Position numbers and translations under genes: made by a program. Below the pieces are notes generated by a model. The model did not search any database. It was not told the DNA's origin and saw nothing but the letters and a program-made list of their open reading frames with translations. From NCBI GenBank assembly GCA_947624175.1, contig CANQJD010000054.1:1-11578 (forward strand): a stretch of 11,578 nt of DNA. The letters run 5' to 3'. How positions within the stretch are numbered: the stretch's first letter is position 1; every line of letters starts with the position of its first letter. The DNA comes from an uncultured Bacilli bacterium. GTDB taxonomy: Bacteria; Bacillota_I; Bacilli_A; RF39; UBA660. Of this stretch, positions 72-7,479 are shown in pieces.

Positions 72-146
72 TGGAGCAGCTGACGGGAATCGAACCCGCG
101 TCCTAGCCTTGGCAAGGCCATATTCGAGCCACTAAACTACAGCTGC
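72..146 (-). tRNA. tRNA-Gly (anticodon GCC), 75 nt with encoded CCA
   Basis: The reverse complement folds as a cloverleaf. Acceptor GCAGCTG/CAGCTGC, anticodon arm TGGCC-TTGCCAA-GGCTA (GCC), T-arm GCGGG-TTCGATT-CCCGT, 3' CCA. Confidence 0.9.
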
Positions 147-148
147 AT

Positions 149-222
149 TGGAGGGGCCAGTCGGATTTGAACCAACGATCAAGGAGTTGCAGTCCACTGC
201 CTTACCACTTGGCTATGACCCC
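149..222 (-). tRNA. tRNA-Cys (anticodon GCA), 74 nt with encoded CCA
   Basis: The reverse complement reads GGGGTCA TA GCCAAGTGGTAAGGC ... CTGCAAC ... GTTGG TTCAAAT CCGAC TGGCCCC T CCA. The D and T arms closely resemble the Bacillus-type tRNA-Cys. It is separated from tRNA-Gly by only 2 nt, so the two are co-transcribed. Confidence 0.9.
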
Positions 223-228
223 ATGCAC

Positions 229-264
229 TTAAGATTATAACAAACAATTAAAAGAAAATCAACT
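229..264. repeat. Left copy of an imperfect direct repeat flanking the accessory segment. It coincides with the tRNA promoter.
   Basis: Block ttaagattataacaaa (229-244) matches ttaagaattataacaaa (7561-7577) with one indel. Block aaaatcaact (255-264) equals 7588-7597. The 10-nt spacer between the blocks is unrelated. Weaker similarity continues to about 218 vs 7549. Confidence 0.45.
234..262 (-). promoter_or_regulatory. Sigma-70-type promoter of the tRNA-Cys/tRNA-Gly operon
   Basis: On the minus strand, -35 TTGATT (+262-257), a 17-nt spacer, and an extended -10 TGtTATAAT (+242-234). The predicted start is ~5 nt upstream of the tRNA-Cys 5' end (222). Confidence 0.5.
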
Positions 265-322
265 GAAATTTTTTATTTTGTACAAAATATTATATTCTAA
301 AAAATAAAAACTGATAAAATAA

Positions 323-351
323 TTGACATTAAAAATTTATCAGTTTTGATT
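323..351 (+). promoter_or_regulatory. Possible outward promoter reading into the recombinase cassette
   Basis: Perfect TTGACA (323-328), a 17-nt spacer, and a weak -10 TTGATT (346-351). The -35 is flanked by a 6-bp inverted repeat CTGATA (311-316) / TATCAG (339-344). AT-rich context makes chance matches likely. Confidence 0.2.
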
Positions 352-363
352 CAAAAAAAATAT

Positions 364-384
364 AGTCGTAGAATAAATAATTCT
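364..384. repeat. Left 21-bp inverted repeat (IR-L) AGTCGTAGAATAAATAATTCT
   Basis: It is the perfect reverse complement of 1483-1503. It contains an internal dyad AGAAT-AAATA-ATTCT, as expected for a recombinase core site. Confidence 0.85.
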
Positions 385-530
385 TTGACTTCTTTCTTTT
401 AGATTATAACATATAAATTGAATTTTGTTAATAATTTTTATAAATTTTTGTCGAAAAATATTTTATATATTGGAATTTAACAAAAAAATATAAGTAATCC
501 TTGTAAAATAAAGGATTGGAGGTGAAAAAT

Positions 531-1478
531 ATGTTTCATTCTAATAATATGCAAAAGAAAAAAATTTTATTTGATGAAATATTAAAACAATGGTTGAATT
601 CAAAAAAAAATATAAAAATCCAAACATATCAAAAATATGAAAACTTAATTAGACTTAATCTCAATAATAATTTAGGTAAAATTACAATATCTGAAATAAA
701 ACAATTAGATATTGTTAATTTCTTTGAAGATTTAACAAAGAAATGTGTTTCTATTTCTACCCAAAAAACTTTGTTTTATATTATAAATTCAGCTTTAAAA
801 TTTGCATATCAAAATAAGTATTGCAAATATATTGATTTAAAAATTATAAAATTTAAATCTTCTATACCAAAAATTCAAGTCTTTTCTAGAGAAATCCAAC
901 AAAAACTTGAAGAAGAATTAAAAAAGAATTTAAATATTCGAAAAGTTTGTTTGCTACTTTGTCTTTATACAGGACTTAGAATTGGAGAAATATGTGGTTT
1001 AAAATGGGAAGATATTGATTTTGATAATAAATCTATACATATAAAAAGAACTATTGAAAGAATCAAAAATGCTAATAAAGAAAGTACTTCTAAAACAATT
1101 TTAATTGAAAGTACTCCTAAAAGTATTACTTCAGAAAGAATTATTCCAATACCTGATTTTTTAATAGAATACTTAAAGAAATATCAAAATTCTGATAATT
1201 ATTATATTTTATCCAATGACGAAACTTTATATGATACAAGACAATTTGAAGCCTTTTATGCTAGGACTTTAAAGAAAATTGGTATTGATCATGTAAATTT
1301 TCATACTTTAAGACATACTTTTGCAACTAGATCAATTGAAGCAAAAATGGATATAAAAACTTTAAGTGAAATATTAGGACATTCATCGATTGAAATAACT
1401 TTAAAACTATATGTTCATCCATCATATGAACTAAAAAAGCAATCAATTGAAAGTTTAGTTAAGTTTATGGCTAATTAA
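531..1478 (+). CDS. Tyrosine site-specific recombinase (phage-integrase family)
   Basis: 315 aa from ATG 531, with an RBS GGAGGTG at 518-524. The ORF track begins at an upstream TTG at 516. The N-terminal core-binding region is Lys-rich. Catalytic signature: GLRIGE (Arg), HTLRHTFAT (His-x-x-Arg), LGHSSIEITLKLYVH with the nucleophile Tyr codon at 1410-1412. Confidence 0.9.
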   Translation: MFHSNNMQKKKILFDEILKQWLNSKKNIKIQTYQKYENLIRLNLNNNLGKITISEIKQLDIVNFFEDLTKKCVSISTQKTLFYIINSALKFAYQNKYCKYIDLKIIKFKSSIPKIQVFSREIQQKLEEELKKNLNIRKVCLLLCLYTGLRIGEICGLKWEDIDFDNKSIHIKRTIERIKNANKESTSKTILIESTPKSITSERIIPIPDFLIEYLKKYQNSDNYYILSNDETLYDTRQFEAFYARTLKKIGIDHVNFHTLRHTFATRSIEAKMDIKTLSEILGHSSIEITLKLYVHPSYELKKQSIESLVKFMAN

Positions 1479-1482
1479 TCAT

Positions 1483-1503
1483 AGAATTATTTATTCTACG
1501 ACT
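1483..1503. repeat. Right 21-bp inverted repeat (IR-R) AGAATTATTTATTCTACGACT
   Basis: Perfect reverse complement of 364-384. It starts 5 nt after the recombinase stop and ends 4 nt before the RBS of the downstream ATPase gene. Confidence 0.85.
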
Positions 1504-1520
1504 GCTAAGAGGTATTGATA

Positions 1521-4175
1521 ATGGATAGTTGTATTTTAAGTGAACTTAACGATGGATACATTGGAATAGATATTTTAGAAATATCTTCAATTCCAGATAT
1601 ATCAATTTTAGGAAACATTAAAGAAGATGACTGTGTAAATAATATTAAAAAGAGTTTTGAAAAACTTTTAAGTGAGTTTTATATCTCATCTATTGAAAGA
1701 GAAAACATTGATTATGAAAATCAGGATTATTCCTTGAGTTTACTTTTTAAGTCTAATGAAATTAGTAATCAAACCTATAAAGCTAACGTTAGTATTTATA
1801 TAGTTATAAGAGGTTTATCAAACGATAAAAATTATTTAATCCATAAAATACAAGAAATAAAAGATGCTATTAAACTTAATTTAAGTTTTTCGAAATATAC
1901 AACTAAAGAAGTAAGTTCTAAAGAAACATTACTAAACGATTTAAAAAATATGTTACAAACGGAAAAAAGATTAATTATTAAAGAAACTAAAAATCAAAAT
2001 CTTCAAAATGCATATTTACCAAGCATTTTAACATTTGATTTATTTCCTAAAAAATCAACTAATTTTACAAAAATTATTAATACTTTAATGGAATTTCCAA
2101 ATGCGTTAATTATTTTTGATTTAATTCCGACTAAATTAAATAATAAAGAAAAAGAAAATTTAAATTATACTTTAAATACTATTTCACTTTTAAAAAATGA
2201 ATATGAAAGAAATCAAAGTAACTTTTCAATGATATTACCAGATAAAAATATCTTTGCCTACAATTACTATGAAGAAAACCAAGATAATATGCTTTTTGCT
2301 TATAATATAGTAGTTGCATCTTTATACAATGCTAATAATATAAGCAATAATTTAATTAGTGAATTATCTTTAGGAGAAAAAGAGGAATTTATTAATTTAA
2401 AAAGTGTTCCATTATCAAATGATGAAGTAGATATAGAAACTTATTTTGATACCTTATCTTGGGTTATAAATGAAATAGTCTTAGATAAATTTAATTCTAA
2501 TAATGAATTAAGGAGATTACCATTTATTATTACATTGGGGGAAGCTAGTGAGTTTTTTAGATTACCATATGGTGATAATCATTTAACAGCAGGAATTAAT
2601 ATAAGTAAAGTAGATATAAACCAAAAAGAATATAATAAAAAAGTTATTGATAATGGAGATATAATGGTGGGATCCTTAAAGAACTCCAATAATAATAAAA
2701 TTGGATTTACTTTAAATGATTTAACCAAACATATGCTTATTGTTGGAACTCCTGGTAGTGGTAAAACAACATTTTCAGTTAGTTTGCTTGATAGAATTTG
2801 GAAAGATTTTAAAATACCATTTTTGGTTATTGAACCAGCTAAGAATGAATATAGAGCTATGATAGATAGTATTCCTGATATTCAAGTATTTACACCAGGA
2901 AAAGATTTTATTTCACCTTATATAATAAATCCATTTATTCCACCTAAAGGAGTAAAGTTACAAAGTTATAAAACCGTTTTAAAAACTGCCTTTGGAGCAG
3001 CTATTCAACTTACAACTCCACTTGATAAAATATTTGAAGATACACTGGATGAGTGCTATTCAAGAGCTGGCTGGTTACCTTTTCATACTATCGAAGATGA
3101 ACATGAAATATTTACAATGGATGATTTTTTAAAAACATTTATGGAAGTATTTGAAAGAATTGGTTATAAAGGTGAAGCATCCAATATTGGAAAAGCAGGA
3201 TATGTAAGATTTAAAAGTCTTCTTAGAGTCTTTGGTTCATATAATACAATTCCAATTGAGGATATTCTAACGAGACCAACAATTATAGAATTAGCAGCTA
3301 TTGAAAATGAAGAGCAAAAATCCTTAATTATTGCTTTACTATTATTAAATATTCAGTCCTATGTAAATGCCAATTATGTCGGAGATGGCGAGATGCGTAA
3401 CTTACTACTTTTAGAAGAAGCTCATGTATTACTTGCATCATCTAATTCAAGTTTTGATAGTGAAAGTCCAAGTATGGTTGCTAAAAAGTTACTTACAAGA
3501 ATGCTTGCTGAGATTCGAAGTTTAGGAGTTGGAATTGTAATAGCCGATCAAAGTCCAGAAAAAGTTACTACCGATATTGTTAAACTTACAAATATTAAAC
3601 TAGCTTTTAACTTAGTTGAGAAGAACGACCGTCAAATTCTTGGCGACTCCACAGATATGAAAGAAAATCAAGTTAATGCCCTTGCTAAGTTAAGACCAGG
3701 AGAAGCATATTTTTATATGAATGGTTTAAATGAGCCAGAAGAAGTTATAACAGAAGATTATCGAAAGAAAGTTCATATTAGAACTACTATATCAGATGCT
3801 GAGATTGCTGATAAAACTACATATTGGTTAACAAGACAAGATAAATTATTACCTCATCGAGAATGTAATTTTATTAATTGTAAAAATACTTTCTGTGACT
3901 ATAAAATAAAAGAAGAAGCAACAGAGTATGCTAGAAGAATTTATGCCAAATATTTTAATCAAGATAGTGATAATAAAGATAAATTAAAAGAAGTATATAA
4001 AAATATTTTAAAAGAAGTAGAAGAATATAAAAAAGGTTCGATTGATGATAAATTATTAACTTGTGTTAAAGTTCATTTTTTAAGATATATCTATTATGAA
4101 ACGAAAATCTTATTTTCTTTAAAAGGAATGGAAAATACTTTAAAAAATGAATTAAATATGGAAGGTGGTGATTAA
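1521..4175 (+). CDS. Large P-loop ATPase of the FtsK/HerA/VirB4 (DUF87-like) superfamily with an unrecognised ~400-aa N-terminal region
   Basis: Likely start ATG 1521 with RBS AAGAGG at 1507-1512. The ORF track starts at TTG 1515. Walker A GTPGSGKTT (2745-2771). Walker B variant LLLLEEAH (3402-3425). An RSLGVGIVIADQSPE box (3525-3569) resembles the Arg-finger/ATQ-P motif of FtsK/HerA/VirB4 ATPases. C-terminal H-x2-C-x4-C-x4-C cluster (3855-3896). Confidence 0.8.
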   Translation: MDSCILSELNDGYIGIDILEISSIPDISILGNIKEDDCVNNIKKSFEKLLSEFYISSIERENIDYENQDYSLSLLFKSNEISNQTYKANVSIYIVIRGLSNDKNYLIHKIQEIKDAIKLNLSFSKYTTKEVSSKETLLNDLKNMLQTEKRLIIKETKNQNLQNAYLPSILTFDLFPKKSTNFTKIINTLMEFPNALIIFDLIPTKLNNKEKENLNYTLNTISLLKNEYERNQSNFSMILPDKNIFAYNYYEENQDNMLFAYNIVVASLYNANNISNNLISELSLGEKEEFINLKSVPLSNDEVDIETYFDTLSWVINEIVLDKFNSNNELRRLPFIITLGEASEFFRLPYGDNHLTAGINISKVDINQKEYNKKVIDNGDIMVGSLKNSNNNKIGFTLNDLTKHMLIVGTPGSGKTTFSVSLLDRIWKDFKIPFLVIEPAKNEYRAMIDSIPDIQVFTPGKDFISPYIINPFIPPKGVKLQSYKTVLKTAFGAAIQLTTPLDKIFEDTLDECYSRAGWLPFHTIEDEHEIFTMDDFLKTFMEVFERIGYKGEASNIGKAGYVRFKSLLRVFGSYNTIPIEDILTRPTIIELAAIENEEQKSLIIALLLLNIQSYVNANYVGDGEMRNLLLLEEAHVLLASSNSSFDSESPSMVAKKLLTRMLAEIRSLGVGIVIADQSPEKVTTDIVKLTNIKLAFNLVEKNDRQILGDSTDMKENQVNALAKLRPGEAYFYMNGLNEPEEVITEDYRKKVHIRTTISDAEIADKTTYWLTRQDKLLPHRECNFINCKNTFCDYKIKEEATEYARRIYAKYFNQDSDNKDKLKEVYKNILKEVEEYKKGSIDDKLLTCVKVHFLRYIYYETKILFSLKGMENTLKNELNMEGGD

Positions 4176-4397
4176 ATGAACGAATGGAGTGATAGGGATG
4201 AATTTTTAGCAGGTTTAAGAGAGAAAACAAATGATCTTGAAGATATGTCTGAAGAACAATTAAAGAAAATTGCTAATGAAGATTTAAATGATAAAAAAAG
4301 CAAAGATACTGATGATAGTAGTGATGACATGGAAAATGATATTGATGCTAAAACCCCTAAAAAACCAATAAAAGAAGAGGATGAGCCAATTATATAA
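4176..4397 (+). CDS. Small (73 aa) highly acidic protein, translationally coupled to the ATPase
   Basis: The ATG directly abuts the ATPase TAA stop (4173-4175). An SD AAGGTGG lies inside the end of the upstream gene. About 26 of 73 residues are Asp or Glu, with Lys-rich patches. No motif was recognised. Confidence 0.6.
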   Translation: MNEWSDRDEFLAGLREKTNDLEDMSEEQLKKIANEDLNDKKSKDTDDSSDDMENDIDAKTPKKPIKEEDEPII

Positions 4398-4418
4398 TTT
4401 TATGGAGGTGAAGTAAAT

Positions 4419-5546
4419 ATGGAATTATATAGTGTTATCAAAAATGATAGACCAGGAAATGAATTAGTTTGGAAATCACCGAATGAAGATTTTAAAAACA
4501 ATACTCAATTAATTGTAATGGAAAGTGAAGAAGCCTTATTTGTTAAAGATGGTATTGTTGTATCAACATTTGAGGGTGGTAAATATACTTTAAATACTGA
4601 AAACTATCCATTTATTGAAAAATTAAAAAATGCCATGAGCGATGGAGTAAGTGCCTTTAATTGCAAAGTATATTTTGTTGATAAAACCCATAAAATGGAA
4701 CTATTTTGGGGAACTGATTCACCAATTCAAATTCGAGATTATGAATATGGATTTGCAGTTGGAGTTCGAGCTAGAGGTTCCTACAATATAGAAATTTCTG
4801 ATTCTAAAAAGTTTTTAATTAAATTAGTTGGTTTAAATACAGTTTCTTATACTGAAGAAAATGTCAGGGATCAATTTAGAACTTTTTTCCAATCAAAGAT
4901 AAAACTTGAAATAGCTACTGTTATGAAAAATTGTAAATATACAATTTTGGATATGAATACAGAGCTTGAAAATATTGCTAATTTAGTAGTTAACAGTTTA
5001 GCAGATAAGCTAGATGAATATGGAGTTAGATTAGTTGATTTTTATATTTCAGATATATCAATTCCTGAAGATGATCCTAATTATAGAATAATTAATGAAG
5101 CTTATGCTAAAGCCCATGTTGGAAAAATTGAAACTAAAGTCCAAGGTGATGATTGGGGTAGAATTGCTGCTAAAGAATTAATGAAAGATATTGCAAATAA
5201 TCCTAATTCAGGAGGAATGGCTAATACGGGAGCTGGAATTGGTATGGGACTTGGAGCAGCCGGAATGTTTGGTAATTTAGCTAACCAAATGTTTGCTCCT
5301 GCTAAAGAGACAATTACACCAGCACCTACTGAAAATAAAACTTCAAGATTTGCTCCTAAAAAGGAGTCTTCTGAAGAAAGCATCAAATGTCCAAATTGTG
5401 GAAATGACAATTCAAAAGGTAGTGCTTTTTGTTCAAAATGTGGTACTAAACTTGTAACTGAAAAATATATATGTAAAAATTGTGGCAAAGAATTACCTAA
5501 TGATGTAGTATTTTGTAGTCAATGTGGAACTAAGAGGGAAGGGTAA
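4419..5546 (+). CDS. SPFH/Band-7 family protein (Band_7_1, B. subtilis YdjI-like) with a Gly/Met/Ala-rich linker and two C-terminal zinc ribbons
   Basis: RBS GGAGGTG at 4404-4410. The N-terminus (LVWKSP...LIVMESEEALFVKDG...GGKYTLNTENYPF...KVYFVDKTHKMELFWGTDSPI...) fits the Band_7_1 pattern as I recall it. Low-complexity NPNSGGMANTGAGIGMGLGAAGMFGNLANQMF. Then CPNCG...CSKCG and CKNCG...CSQCG (about 5388-5530). Confidence 0.75.
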   Translation: MELYSVIKNDRPGNELVWKSPNEDFKNNTQLIVMESEEALFVKDGIVVSTFEGGKYTLNTENYPFIEKLKNAMSDGVSAFNCKVYFVDKTHKMELFWGTDSPIQIRDYEYGFAVGVRARGSYNIEISDSKKFLIKLVGLNTVSYTEENVRDQFRTFFQSKIKLEIATVMKNCKYTILDMNTELENIANLVVNSLADKLDEYGVRLVDFYISDISIPEDDPNYRIINEAYAKAHVGKIETKVQGDDWGRIAAKELMKDIANNPNSGGMANTGAGIGMGLGAAGMFGNLANQMFAPAKETITPAPTENKTSRFAPKKESSEESIKCPNCGNDNSKGSAFCSKCGTKLVTEKYICKNCGKELPNDVVFCSQCGTKREG

Positions 5547-5549
5547 TTT

Positions 5550-6197
5550 ATGAAAAATAATAATATTTTAAAGATAATTATTACAATTATTTTGTTAGCA
5601 ATTATTGATTCAATCGTTTTCTTAACAGTAAAAGAATTTGATGCAGCAAGAATTATAAATATTAGTATACTTAATTTAGTTGTAATTTGTTTACTTATAT
5701 TATCTTTTAAAAATAATGAAGGTAAATATAAATTTTTAGAATATTCTAAAATTACAATTATTGCAATATATACAATTATTACTTTTATATTAAGTATTAC
5801 ACTTATTGCAGTTAAAGCTAATTTAACTTTAACTTTAGTTTCTCAAATATTAGTAACAGGTATATCTTTAGTACTTATATTAACTAATCAAATGAGTGAT
5901 AATAATATAATTGAAAATACTACAAAAGTTAATGAAAAGGTAGATAATGTAAAAGTTATAAGTAATAAATTAAAAACTATCTTAAAATTAATAACAGATA
6001 GAGACTTATATAAAAAAGTTGAAAAAGTATATGATAATGCCAGAAGTTTAAAAGTTGATGTTAATAATAGTCAAGATATTGATAATGAAATTTTAACATT
6101 AATAGGAATGCTTGATAGAGAAATTAAAATGCAACATGATGTTACGGATCTTTTAAATAAAATAAATAATAAATTTATTGAAAGGAATAATTTATAG
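5550..6197 (+). CDS. Polytopic membrane protein (4 predicted transmembrane helices) with a C-terminal coiled-coil-like soluble region. YdjH-like.
   Basis: It starts 3 nt after the upstream stop. It has four hydrophobic stretches in the first ~110 aa and a charged, Lys/Asp-rich C-terminus. Confidence 0.65.
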   Translation: MKNNNILKIIITIILLAIIDSIVFLTVKEFDAARIINISILNLVVICLLILSFKNNEGKYKFLEYSKITIIAIYTIITFILSITLIAVKANLTLTLVSQILVTGISLVLILTNQMSDNNIIENTTKVNEKVDNVKVISNKLKTILKLITDRDLYKKVEKVYDNARSLKVDVNNSQDIDNEILTLIGMLDREIKMQHDVTDLLNKINNKFIERNNL

Positions 6198-6208
6198 GAG
6201 TGTGAAGT

Positions 6209-7426
6209 ATGGTAAAATTAAAAGATGCAAAGTGCCCAAATTGTGGTGCAAATATTGAAGTAAATGATAAATTGGAGAAATCTATTTGTCAATATTGTGG
6301 TAGTACGGTTATGGTTGATGAAGCCATTGAAAAGTATAAGTTAGAAATAAGTGGTAAGGTTGAAGTTGAAGGTATTAAGGGTAGAAGTAGTAAGATAAAA
6401 CAAGCTATTAAACATAAAAAATTAAAAGAATATGATAAAGCAACAAAAATTTTAAAAGAAGTTATTGCTGATGATGAATTTGATATTGAGGCTTTAGCTG
6501 AACTTGTTAAATTAGATATTGATATTATTGAAAATAGTGATTTTGATGAAAATCTTGATAGTAGACAAAGTGATGAAAAAAGTTTCTTATTAATAGATGA
6601 AATTATTAATACTTATAATCGTATTAGTGATATTGATGAAAGTGAAGGGGAAACTTATGATATGTTAGATGGATATCATGAGAAAGTTACTCATTACTGT
6701 GATGTTGCTAATAAATTGATTGATGACAATGAATCATTAGATAAATATCTTGAAAAATTAAATGATGATTATGATATAGTTAGTAAAATAAGTGATAAAG
6801 CAGCCGAAGAATGGTGTAAGGAATTATCTCAAAGAATGCATTTGGCAGACTTTAATAACTATTATAAAGTTAGGTATCGTCAGCCAGGGGCTACTGGATT
6901 TAGTTGGTATCGTTTATCAAGTTTCAAAGAAATTGCTAGAAATGGAATTATAGAAAGTCATTATAGTTGGATACATGATGGAGAATATGGTAATCCTTCA
7001 ATAGCTGATTTATGGATAAAACCAGAGCCTGATAAAGAGTTTAAAAGCCTTGATGAAGTTAAAAAAGCATTGGATGGCTTCTTAGAATATTCAAATGAAT
7101 ATGTTGAAGAAAATTCAAAATCTAAAAATAGTGAAATAGATAAAGCAAATAGAAAGTTAGATAGACAAAATACTGTAATTGATGCTAAAATAAAAATGAA
7201 ATATGTTAAAATTGGAGTTATGGCATTTATAATACTATGTATGGTAATTTGGTCTATTTCAATATTAGTAAAAAGTTTTGTTGGATTTATTGCTTTTGTT
7301 ATCTTGGTTGATTCTTGGGCTATATCTTTACCATTTATGTCTATTCAAGATACGTTATATGATATAAAGGGTAAGAAGAGAGAAAAAGAAATAAATAAAA
7401 GTAGTAAAAGAGATCATGTTAAATAA
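6209..7426 (+). CDS. Zinc-ribbon protein with an acidic central region and two C-terminal transmembrane helices. YdjG-like.
   Basis: RBS AGGAG at 6196-6200. N-terminal CPNCG...CQYCG (about 6236-6302). An Asp/Glu-rich central part. C-terminal hydrophobic stretches VMAFIILCMVIWSISILV and FVGFIAFVILVDSWAISLPF. Confidence 0.7.
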   Translation: MVKLKDAKCPNCGANIEVNDKLEKSICQYCGSTVMVDEAIEKYKLEISGKVEVEGIKGRSSKIKQAIKHKKLKEYDKATKILKEVIADDEFDIEALAELVKLDIDIIENSDFDENLDSRQSDEKSFLLIDEIINTYNRISDIDESEGETYDMLDGYHEKVTHYCDVANKLIDDNESLDKYLEKLNDDYDIVSKISDKAAEEWCKELSQRMHLADFNNYYKVRYRQPGATGFSWYRLSSFKEIARNGIIESHYSWIHDGEYGNPSIADLWIKPEPDKEFKSLDEVKKALDGFLEYSNEYVEENSKSKNSEIDKANRKLDRQNTVIDAKIKMKYVKIGVMAFIILCMVIWSISILVKSFVGFIAFVILVDSWAISLPFMSIQDTLYDIKGKKREKEINKSSKRDHVK

Positions 7427-7449: not shown

Positions 7450-7479
7450 GAATGATGAAGATTTTATCATTCTTTTTTT
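7450..7479 (+). terminator. Rho-independent terminator ending the 5-gene operon
   Basis: Stem GAATGAT (7450-7456), a 9-nt loop, stem ATCATTC (7466-7472), then T7 (7473-7479). It lies 24 nt after the last stop codon. Confidence 0.75.

Follow-up and report, generated by a model that had tools for sequence, protein, structure and literature searches.

The 11,578-nucleotide stretch of DNA analysed here, referred to below as the window, has a GC content of 26% and carries tRNA-Gly and tRNA-Cys genes, followed by a tyrosine recombinase gene, a five-gene ATPase operon and the genes lon and mutS. Its composition gives no clear island signal. The tRNA-Gly(GCC) and tRNA-Cys(GCA) genes (72–222, minus strand) form one flank of the recombinase gene, and the ATPase operon, which we call the cargo, forms the other. 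A TG-extended promoter-like element, TTGATT-17-TATAAT, is located directly upstream of tRNA-Cys (234–262, minus strand). As judged from its sequence, this element probably drives the tRNA genes themselves, in which case they would not depend on the outward promoter discussed below. Two contigs from sister samples (L108 and L109) differ from the window left of position 294, as compared over window 239–293, and in the sequence found there instead TGGTCCAA occurs twice, at a distance of about 20 nt.

The recombinase gene is enclosed by two inverted repeats. The 21-mer AGTCGTAGAATAAATAATTCT at 364–384 is the exact reverse complement of 1483–1503, and no further copy is present in the window even when three mismatches are allowed. 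Two such 21-mer matches did not arise by chance in any of 200 dinucleotide shuffles of the window. The exact 21-bp repeats which the original prediction had placed around a segment of about 1.14 kb are hence real and non-random, and the match reaches 25 nt at 96% identity (364–388 and 1479–1503). The exact 21-mer had no match in JGI metagenome contigs.

The internal dyad that had been pointed out in each repeat is confirmed as an imperfect dyad of two 9-nt arms around an asymmetric 7-nt spacer. The left, lox-like site (IR-L, 364–390, plus strand) consists of the outer arm GTCGTAGAA (365–373), the spacer TAAATAA (374–380) and the inner arm TTCTTTGAC (381–389). The right site (IR-R, 1478–1503) is the second copy in inverted orientation and reads GTCGTAGAA-TAAATAA-TTCTATGAT on the minus strand (1502–1478), with its outer arm at 1502–1494, spacer at 1493–1487 and inner arm at 1486–1478. 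The two TAAATAA spacers are identical and inverted relative to each other. Two binding arms flanking an asymmetric crossover spacer are the layout of lox, FRT and dif sites. Inverted spacers combined with a recombinase of the tyrosine class predict inversion of the enclosed segment and not its excision. A role of the repeats as an RNA hairpin or terminator was rejected, since the arms lie 1.1 kb apart and the hairpins of the single sites are weak (−4 to −8 kcal/mol).

The recombinase gene (531–1478, plus strand) encodes a protein of 315 aa with Pfam matches to PF00589 (Phage_integrase, 3.5e-31) and PF14659 (5e-08). A SAM-like core-binding domain is joined to a catalytic domain, and an arm-binding domain is absent. 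The product shows the R..H-x-x-R..H/W..Y pattern of the PF00589 superfamily, and its residues R150, H258, R261, H284 and Y294 are conserved without exception across an alignment of 38 family sequences. All of its recognised domains are of the tyrosine-recombinase type, and a resolvase-type serine domain is absent. Searches of NCBIfam and of PDB sequences did not place the protein in any named family, and it falls below the NCBIfam cut-offs of all named Xer, FimB/E and integron families. A FimB/FimE-type invertase was rejected at 34 bits for NF007370 (cut-off 221) and 24 bits for NF007371 (cut-off 222). An integron integrase was rejected at 62 bits against a cut-off of 265 for the IntI model, with no further sites in the cargo. 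A Xer recombinase acting at dif was likewise rejected, the best model (XerA) giving 95 bits against a cut-off of 220, and the two inverted sites around the gene also speak against a single dif site. At the sequence level the protein matches only Xer and Tn1549 Int-type recombinases, with no membership in the Cre/Flp family. Its best phage relative is 37% identical and its best plasmid relative 35%. The cluster that contains it at 90% identity has five members.

The recombinase stop codon occupies 1476–1478, the repeat of IR-R begins 4 nt further on, and the ribosome binding site of the cargo (1507–1512, AAGAGG) follows directly. The spacing previously given for these elements is correct, and the coordinates bear out that no room for a promoter is left between IR-R and this ribosome binding site. 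The cargo operon (1507–7426, plus strand) comprises genes for a HerA/DUF87-like ATPase of 884 aa with its ATG at 1521 (1521–4175), a 73-aa ORF (4176–4397), an SPFH protein with a double zinc ribbon (4419–5546), a membrane protein (5550–6197) and a zinc-ribbon protein (6209–7426), all on the plus strand. It is closed by a terminator-like hairpin, GAATGAT...ATCATTC followed by T7 (7450–7479, plus strand, −11.4 kcal/mol). The SPFH (Band_7_1)/zinc-ribbon, small membrane and TFIIB-type zinc-ribbon proteins encoded at 4419–7426 may resemble the products of the membrane-stress genes ydjG-ydjH-ydjI of Bacillus subtilis.

The ATPase has weak matches to HerA, FtsK, CedD and mad8-type models. PADLOC returned generic HerA/mad8 matches for it and nothing for the other cargo proteins, and an exact look-up of the ATPase protein found no record. 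Its ATPase domain has homologues (E = 2e-31 and 2e-42) among the cassette-cargo ATPases of two Clostridia. HerA/DUF87-like ATPases of about 900–1100 aa recur as cassette cargo in both of these classes, Bacilli as well as Clostridia, and in each case on the side of IR-R (window 1521–4175; L055, 7365–10634; L065, 7485–10586). Contig L001 lacks 81 nt of the ATPase gene between two 30-nt direct repeats (D13, 80% identical; window 2034–2144), an in-frame length polymorphism of 27 codons in the N-terminal region of the ATPase.

A family of recombinase genes bracketed by inverted sites

Homologues of the recombinase at 55–78% identity occur in unrelated contexts but have inverted repeats placed equivalently around the gene, the two arms varying in concert. 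We scanned the family with one genome per species, giving 80 loci, mostly from uncultured gut Bacilli (46–66% identity) and Clostridia (35–44%). A bracketing inverted repeat (score at least 18) was found in 49 of the 80 loci as against none of 238 position-shifted controls, a count in which at least one negative locus had its sites outside the search range and others keep one site. Direct-repeat scores around the family loci are at background. The spacer is the same in both sites of a locus in 51 of 52 loci, and 46 distinct spacers, none of them palindromic, occur across these 52. The arms share a TCGTAGAA, TCGCAGAA or TCGCAAAA theme. Such co-variation of the spacers within a locus is a requirement of strand exchange and not of operator binding.

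On predicted viral contigs the architecture is present in 12 of 20 relatives at 33–36% identity and in none of 20 at 32% or less. The IR-bracketed relatives of this kind lie on IMG/VR contigs L111–L128, and their presence there suggests that the switch may operate in prophages too.

Paralogues within one metagenome-assembled genome (MAG) are 51–70% identical, and identical multi-copy cassettes were not seen. In one such case (L027 and L033, both in CANQON01) the recombinases are 70% identical and the sites differ by one spacer base (ctcataa and ctcatta); this single difference may insulate the two switches from each other. Two members (L030 and L054) have one recognisable site, upstream of the gene, and may represent locked or decayed switches or have a different role. 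In six Clostridial members (L056, L057, L063, L092, L096 and L099; L092 is from the cultured Blautia fusiformis CLA-AA-H217), direct repeats arranged in pairs, (G/C)GTCA-N7-8-GGTCA, precede the recombinase ribosome binding site and also follow the stop codon. The window lacks such pairs; they may serve for accessory or regulatory binding.

Both orientations of the cassette

The cassette exists in both orientations in natural populations, as seen at the level of contigs. Among the contigs of public assemblies, the native order of the window is found in L109 (ENA ERZ27249329), which corresponds to window 294–2136, and in L001, L002 and L110, and the inverted arrangement in L108 and L101.

Contig L108 (ERZ27249337, from the same study as L109) runs from window 454 to 1503 and then continues as the reverse complement of 363–294 (98.9%), so that the junction sits directly past the outer end of IR-R and leads onto the tRNA-side flank. 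Nucleotides 1–125 of L109, reverse-complemented, match the tail of L108 without a difference. This is the junction that a flipped cassette predicts, at a coverage of only 1.6x, at which a chimeric join through the repeat could also have arisen.

The reciprocal junction of the inverted state is given by the Logan contig L101 (1151 nt), which comprises the cassette only. Its left end reads CTTATAAAT and then IR-L; on the other strand this matches the cargo flank ATTTATAAG that follows IR-R in L100, of which just 9 nt are covered. The contig (k=31) starts exactly 31−22 = 9 nt before the repeat, at the first k-mer of the k=31 graph holding the base that tells the two inner ends apart. Two further Logan contigs (L102 and L103) also comprise the cassette only, with both ends exactly inside the inverted repeats. 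The longest contig measured 1.07–1.40 kb, approximately the size of the cassette, in 16 among the 120 matches listed. Assembly breaks at these recombinase genes are explained by the invertible cassette.

At the well-sampled P0022 locus no inverted orientation was found, all 12 assemblies examined having the same orientation in one fixed context, and none of the three P0022 loci in metagenome contigs is inverted. Some switches may accordingly be strongly biased or locked. As to the cassette of the window, the description of a self-contained, hin-like cassette with its own tyrosine recombinase is supported, with both orientations found and with bracketing sites that are conserved and co-vary across the family.

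Outward promoter, switch polarity and alternative readings

Upstream of the recombinase start codon, the part of the cassette that follows IR-L (385–530) contains a predicted sigma-70-like promoter on the minus strand (403–431), which we call P_out. It consists of a −35 element TTAACA (431–426), a 17-nt spacer and a TG-extended −10 element TATAAT (408–403), and reads leftward across IR-L. With 11 of 12 consensus positions plus the TG it is the best match within 200–1700, a prediction to be read against the fact that promoter-like matches are common in a 26% GC genome, the region 200–1700 itself scoring fewer of them than its shuffles. No good match to a plus-strand promoter was found upstream of the recombinase gene (best 9 of 12), which is presumably transcribed from a weak promoter within 385–530.

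The outward direction of this promoter is a property of the family. In promoter scoring the outward strand outscores the other strand in 47 of 52 loci, and scores of at least 11 are reached on the outward strand in 27 loci and on the other strand in one. The best-scoring outward −10 element ends about 10–40 nt inside IR-L in most family loci, and several Clostridia have a perfect TTGACA-17-TATAAT outward promoter. Clostridial members also carry a hairpin of −20 to −32 kcal/mol with a T-run between the recombinase stop and IR-R, which would block read-through into the cargo. No terminator-like site is present between the recombinase and ATPase genes in the window. In the subfamily to which the window belongs, which has no terminator before IR-R, basal read-through would therefore be possible and the present state could be ON.

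Across the family, the distance from IR-L or IR-R to the first cargo gene outside it is 0–40 nt, too short for the cargo to have a promoter of its own. Where the cargo adjoins IR-L it starts 14–40 nt outside the site, and P_out is then its only possible driver. Cargo lies at IR-R in about 22 loci and at IR-L in about nine, so that most assemblies would be in the OFF state if P_out is the driver. The repeat beside which orthologous cargo lies, IR-R or IR-L, differs between genomes while the 21–22-nt spacing stays the same, as in L040 compared with L043 (79–85% amino-acid identity over 5.5 kb) and in L097, from the cultured Ruminococcus sp. LCP21S3_E8, compared with L056 and L044. The simplest model would have the cargo ON when it faces P_out.

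The conserved outward promoter, together with the Clostridial terminators, makes an OFF or low state of the window the likelier one, and by this sequence-based argument inversion would probably switch the ATPase operon ON. In the orientation of the window P_out would face the tRNA genes, and the ATPase/SPFH operon would receive at most read-through from the recombinase gene. The recombinase, which we infer to be sufficient alone, would bind the four arms, exchange strands within the spacers and flip the 1.14-kb segment. P_out would then map to 1436–1464, about 55 nt upstream of the ATPase ATG, and would transcribe across the site into the operon. We therefore read 364–1503 as an autonomous invertible promoter cassette with lox-like sites, its own recombinase and an outward promoter, standing OFF or low in the window, and assign to this reading a probability of about 0.7.

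The original prediction had the opposite polarity, with the operon ON at present through read-through from the recombinase promoter and inversion turning it OFF or lowering its level. Its proposal that the cassette controls the abutting operon is retained here, while its polarity is not, as the conserved promoter lies on the opposite strand. The absence of a terminator-like site between the two genes, the close packing of stop codon, IR-R and ribosome binding site, and the predominance of cargo that is co-directional with and downstream of the recombinase gene (about 22 loci to about nine) would all suit such read-through. However, the best plus-strand promoter reaches only 9 of 12 positions whereas the strong, conserved one points the other way, Clostridial relatives with the same layout have strong terminators before IR-R, and cargo placed 14–40 nt outside IR-L could be driven by P_out alone. 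We consider an operon that is ON in the window to be unlikely. A different possibility is that mobility or the capture of cargo is the main role of the cassette, as either a tyrosine-recombinase element with terminal IRs or an integron-like platform where recombination at IR-R exchanges the adjoining operon, and that inversion is a side reaction. In L100 the same tRNA flank and a cassette 96% identical to that of the window are followed by unrelated cargo (WXG100-like, E2-CBASS, JAB and ThiF genes, like those of the 78%-identical relative L003), and homology stops exactly at the outer end of IR-R (window 1503/1504; L100 1451/1452). Cassette and cargo also move together into differing genomic contexts, and IR-bracketed relatives occur on predicted viral contigs. 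Yet neither a third nor a hybrid site was found where the cargo ends in the window, and with no second site bounding the cargo the exchange may have been site-specific or may have come about by homologous recombination within the conserved cassette, which would give an equally sharp boundary. The lack of identical multi-copy cassettes, the divergence of paralogues within a MAG and the one fixed context of P0022 in 12 assemblies further make a chiefly mobile module decidedly improbable.

It could also be argued that the gene is the ordinary integrase of a tRNA-adjacent island and that the repeats are incidental, or are autoregulatory operators that do not take part in inversion. The gene does adjoin tRNA-Cys and tRNA-Gly, and Pfam assigns it to the generic phage integrase family. 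However, both tRNA genes have the recombinase gene on their 5' side, and the putative island lacks flanking direct att repeats, on which grounds a tRNA-integrated island or prophage integrase was rejected. The same observations, with direct-repeat scores at background and only two sites in the window, uphold the earlier view that the repeats are not att sites. Bracketing repeats are moreover absent from the viral-contig relatives at 32% identity or less but accompany 12 of 20 at 33–36%, inverted junctions are observed, and the co-variation of the spacers fits strand exchange and not operator binding. Taken together, these points leave an ordinary integrase hardly tenable and favour the invertible promoter cassette.

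Relation to known inversion systems and implications

The functionally closest known system is the H-segment of Salmonella (hin/hixL-hixR, fljBA), which is likewise about 1 kb in length and holds an invertase gene and an outward promoter between short inverted sites. Hin belongs to the serine recombinases and depends on Fis and an enhancer, whereas a tyrosine recombinase is encoded here. The promoter of the H-segment is downstream of and co-directional with hin, while in the present cassette it is divergent from the recombinase gene and located at the opposite end of the segment. The sites and the enzyme are reminiscent of Cre/loxP and Flp/FRT, in which two inverted arms surround an asymmetric 7–8-nt spacer that sets directionality, a recombinase of about 300–340 aa has no arm-binding domain, and inverted sites lead to inversion, as with the FLP gene between inverted FRT sites on the 2-micron plasmid. 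The arms of those systems are 13 nt long in comparison to 9–10 nt here, and the present cassette is chromosomal and moves a promoter.

Inversion of a promoter segment between short inverted repeats by a tyrosine recombinase is also shared with fimS (FimB/FimE), with RecV of C. difficile and with Tsr of Bacteroides, which phase-vary surface or other costly functions. In these switches the recombinase gene lies outside the segment, in some cases far away, one enzyme often serves several switches, and the segments measure 150–400 bp; here the gene lies inside a 1.14-kb segment with a private spacer. A tyrosine recombinase gene that lies between inverted repeats and moves with the inverting segment is reported for the CreX/PsrA hsdS shufflons of type I R-M systems in S. 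pneumoniae (PMC7672463, PMC7096588). There the repeats lie inside the hsdS coding sequence and specificity domains are reshuffled, whereas the sites described here are intergenic and it is a promoter that is moved. A predicted fimbrial switch of Providencia stuartii (844 bp, with 14-bp imperfect repeats) resembles the present cassette in enclosing a recombinase ORF within an invertible segment that adjoins a surface-structure operon; it is a single proteobacterial locus, noted in a passing mention that gives no recombinase type, family, site anatomy or promoter (Sekulovic et al. 2018, PMC5903667).

Promoter inversion by tyrosine recombinases and the self-contained switch of the hin type are thus known, and what appears to be new is the recombinase inside a promoter inverton combined with a spacer private to each cassette. 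In the accessible portion of the literature, mostly outside subscription journals, no tyrosine-recombinase family bracketed by its own inverted sites is described, and a large family of such switches in gut Firmicutes has apparently not been described before. To our knowledge, standard inverton surveys seek short intergenic segments and would skip gene-containing segments of 1.1 kb. An entire class of phase-variable loci may therefore have escaped notice in the uncultured Bacilli and Clostridia of the gut. The dozens of natural recombinase/site pairs with distinct spacers could also serve as an orthogonal set of Cre/lox-like switches.

We tentatively suggest, at a little under even odds, that the members of this apparently undescribed family are portable phase-variation modules, each with a Cre-like recombinase, a strong outward promoter and a private spacer, and that they are perhaps points of cargo exchange as well. 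If so, private spacers would let several modules coexist in one genome without cross-talk, and the outer edge of the site would be a swap point for HerA-like ATPase, T7SS-like, surface-protein and kinase cargo. The family cargo is mixed, including HTH regulators, FHA domains, Ser/Thr kinase and PP2C modules, a SipW-type signal peptidase with secreted proteins, glycosyltransferases and WXG100/EssC-like loci. It extends beyond surface antigens to HerA/FtsK-like ATPase operons, T7SS-like and ubiquitin-like loci and kinase/phosphatase modules. This range of cargo is suggestive of bet-hedging at the level of the population, applied to costly machinery for membrane, secretion or defence functions.
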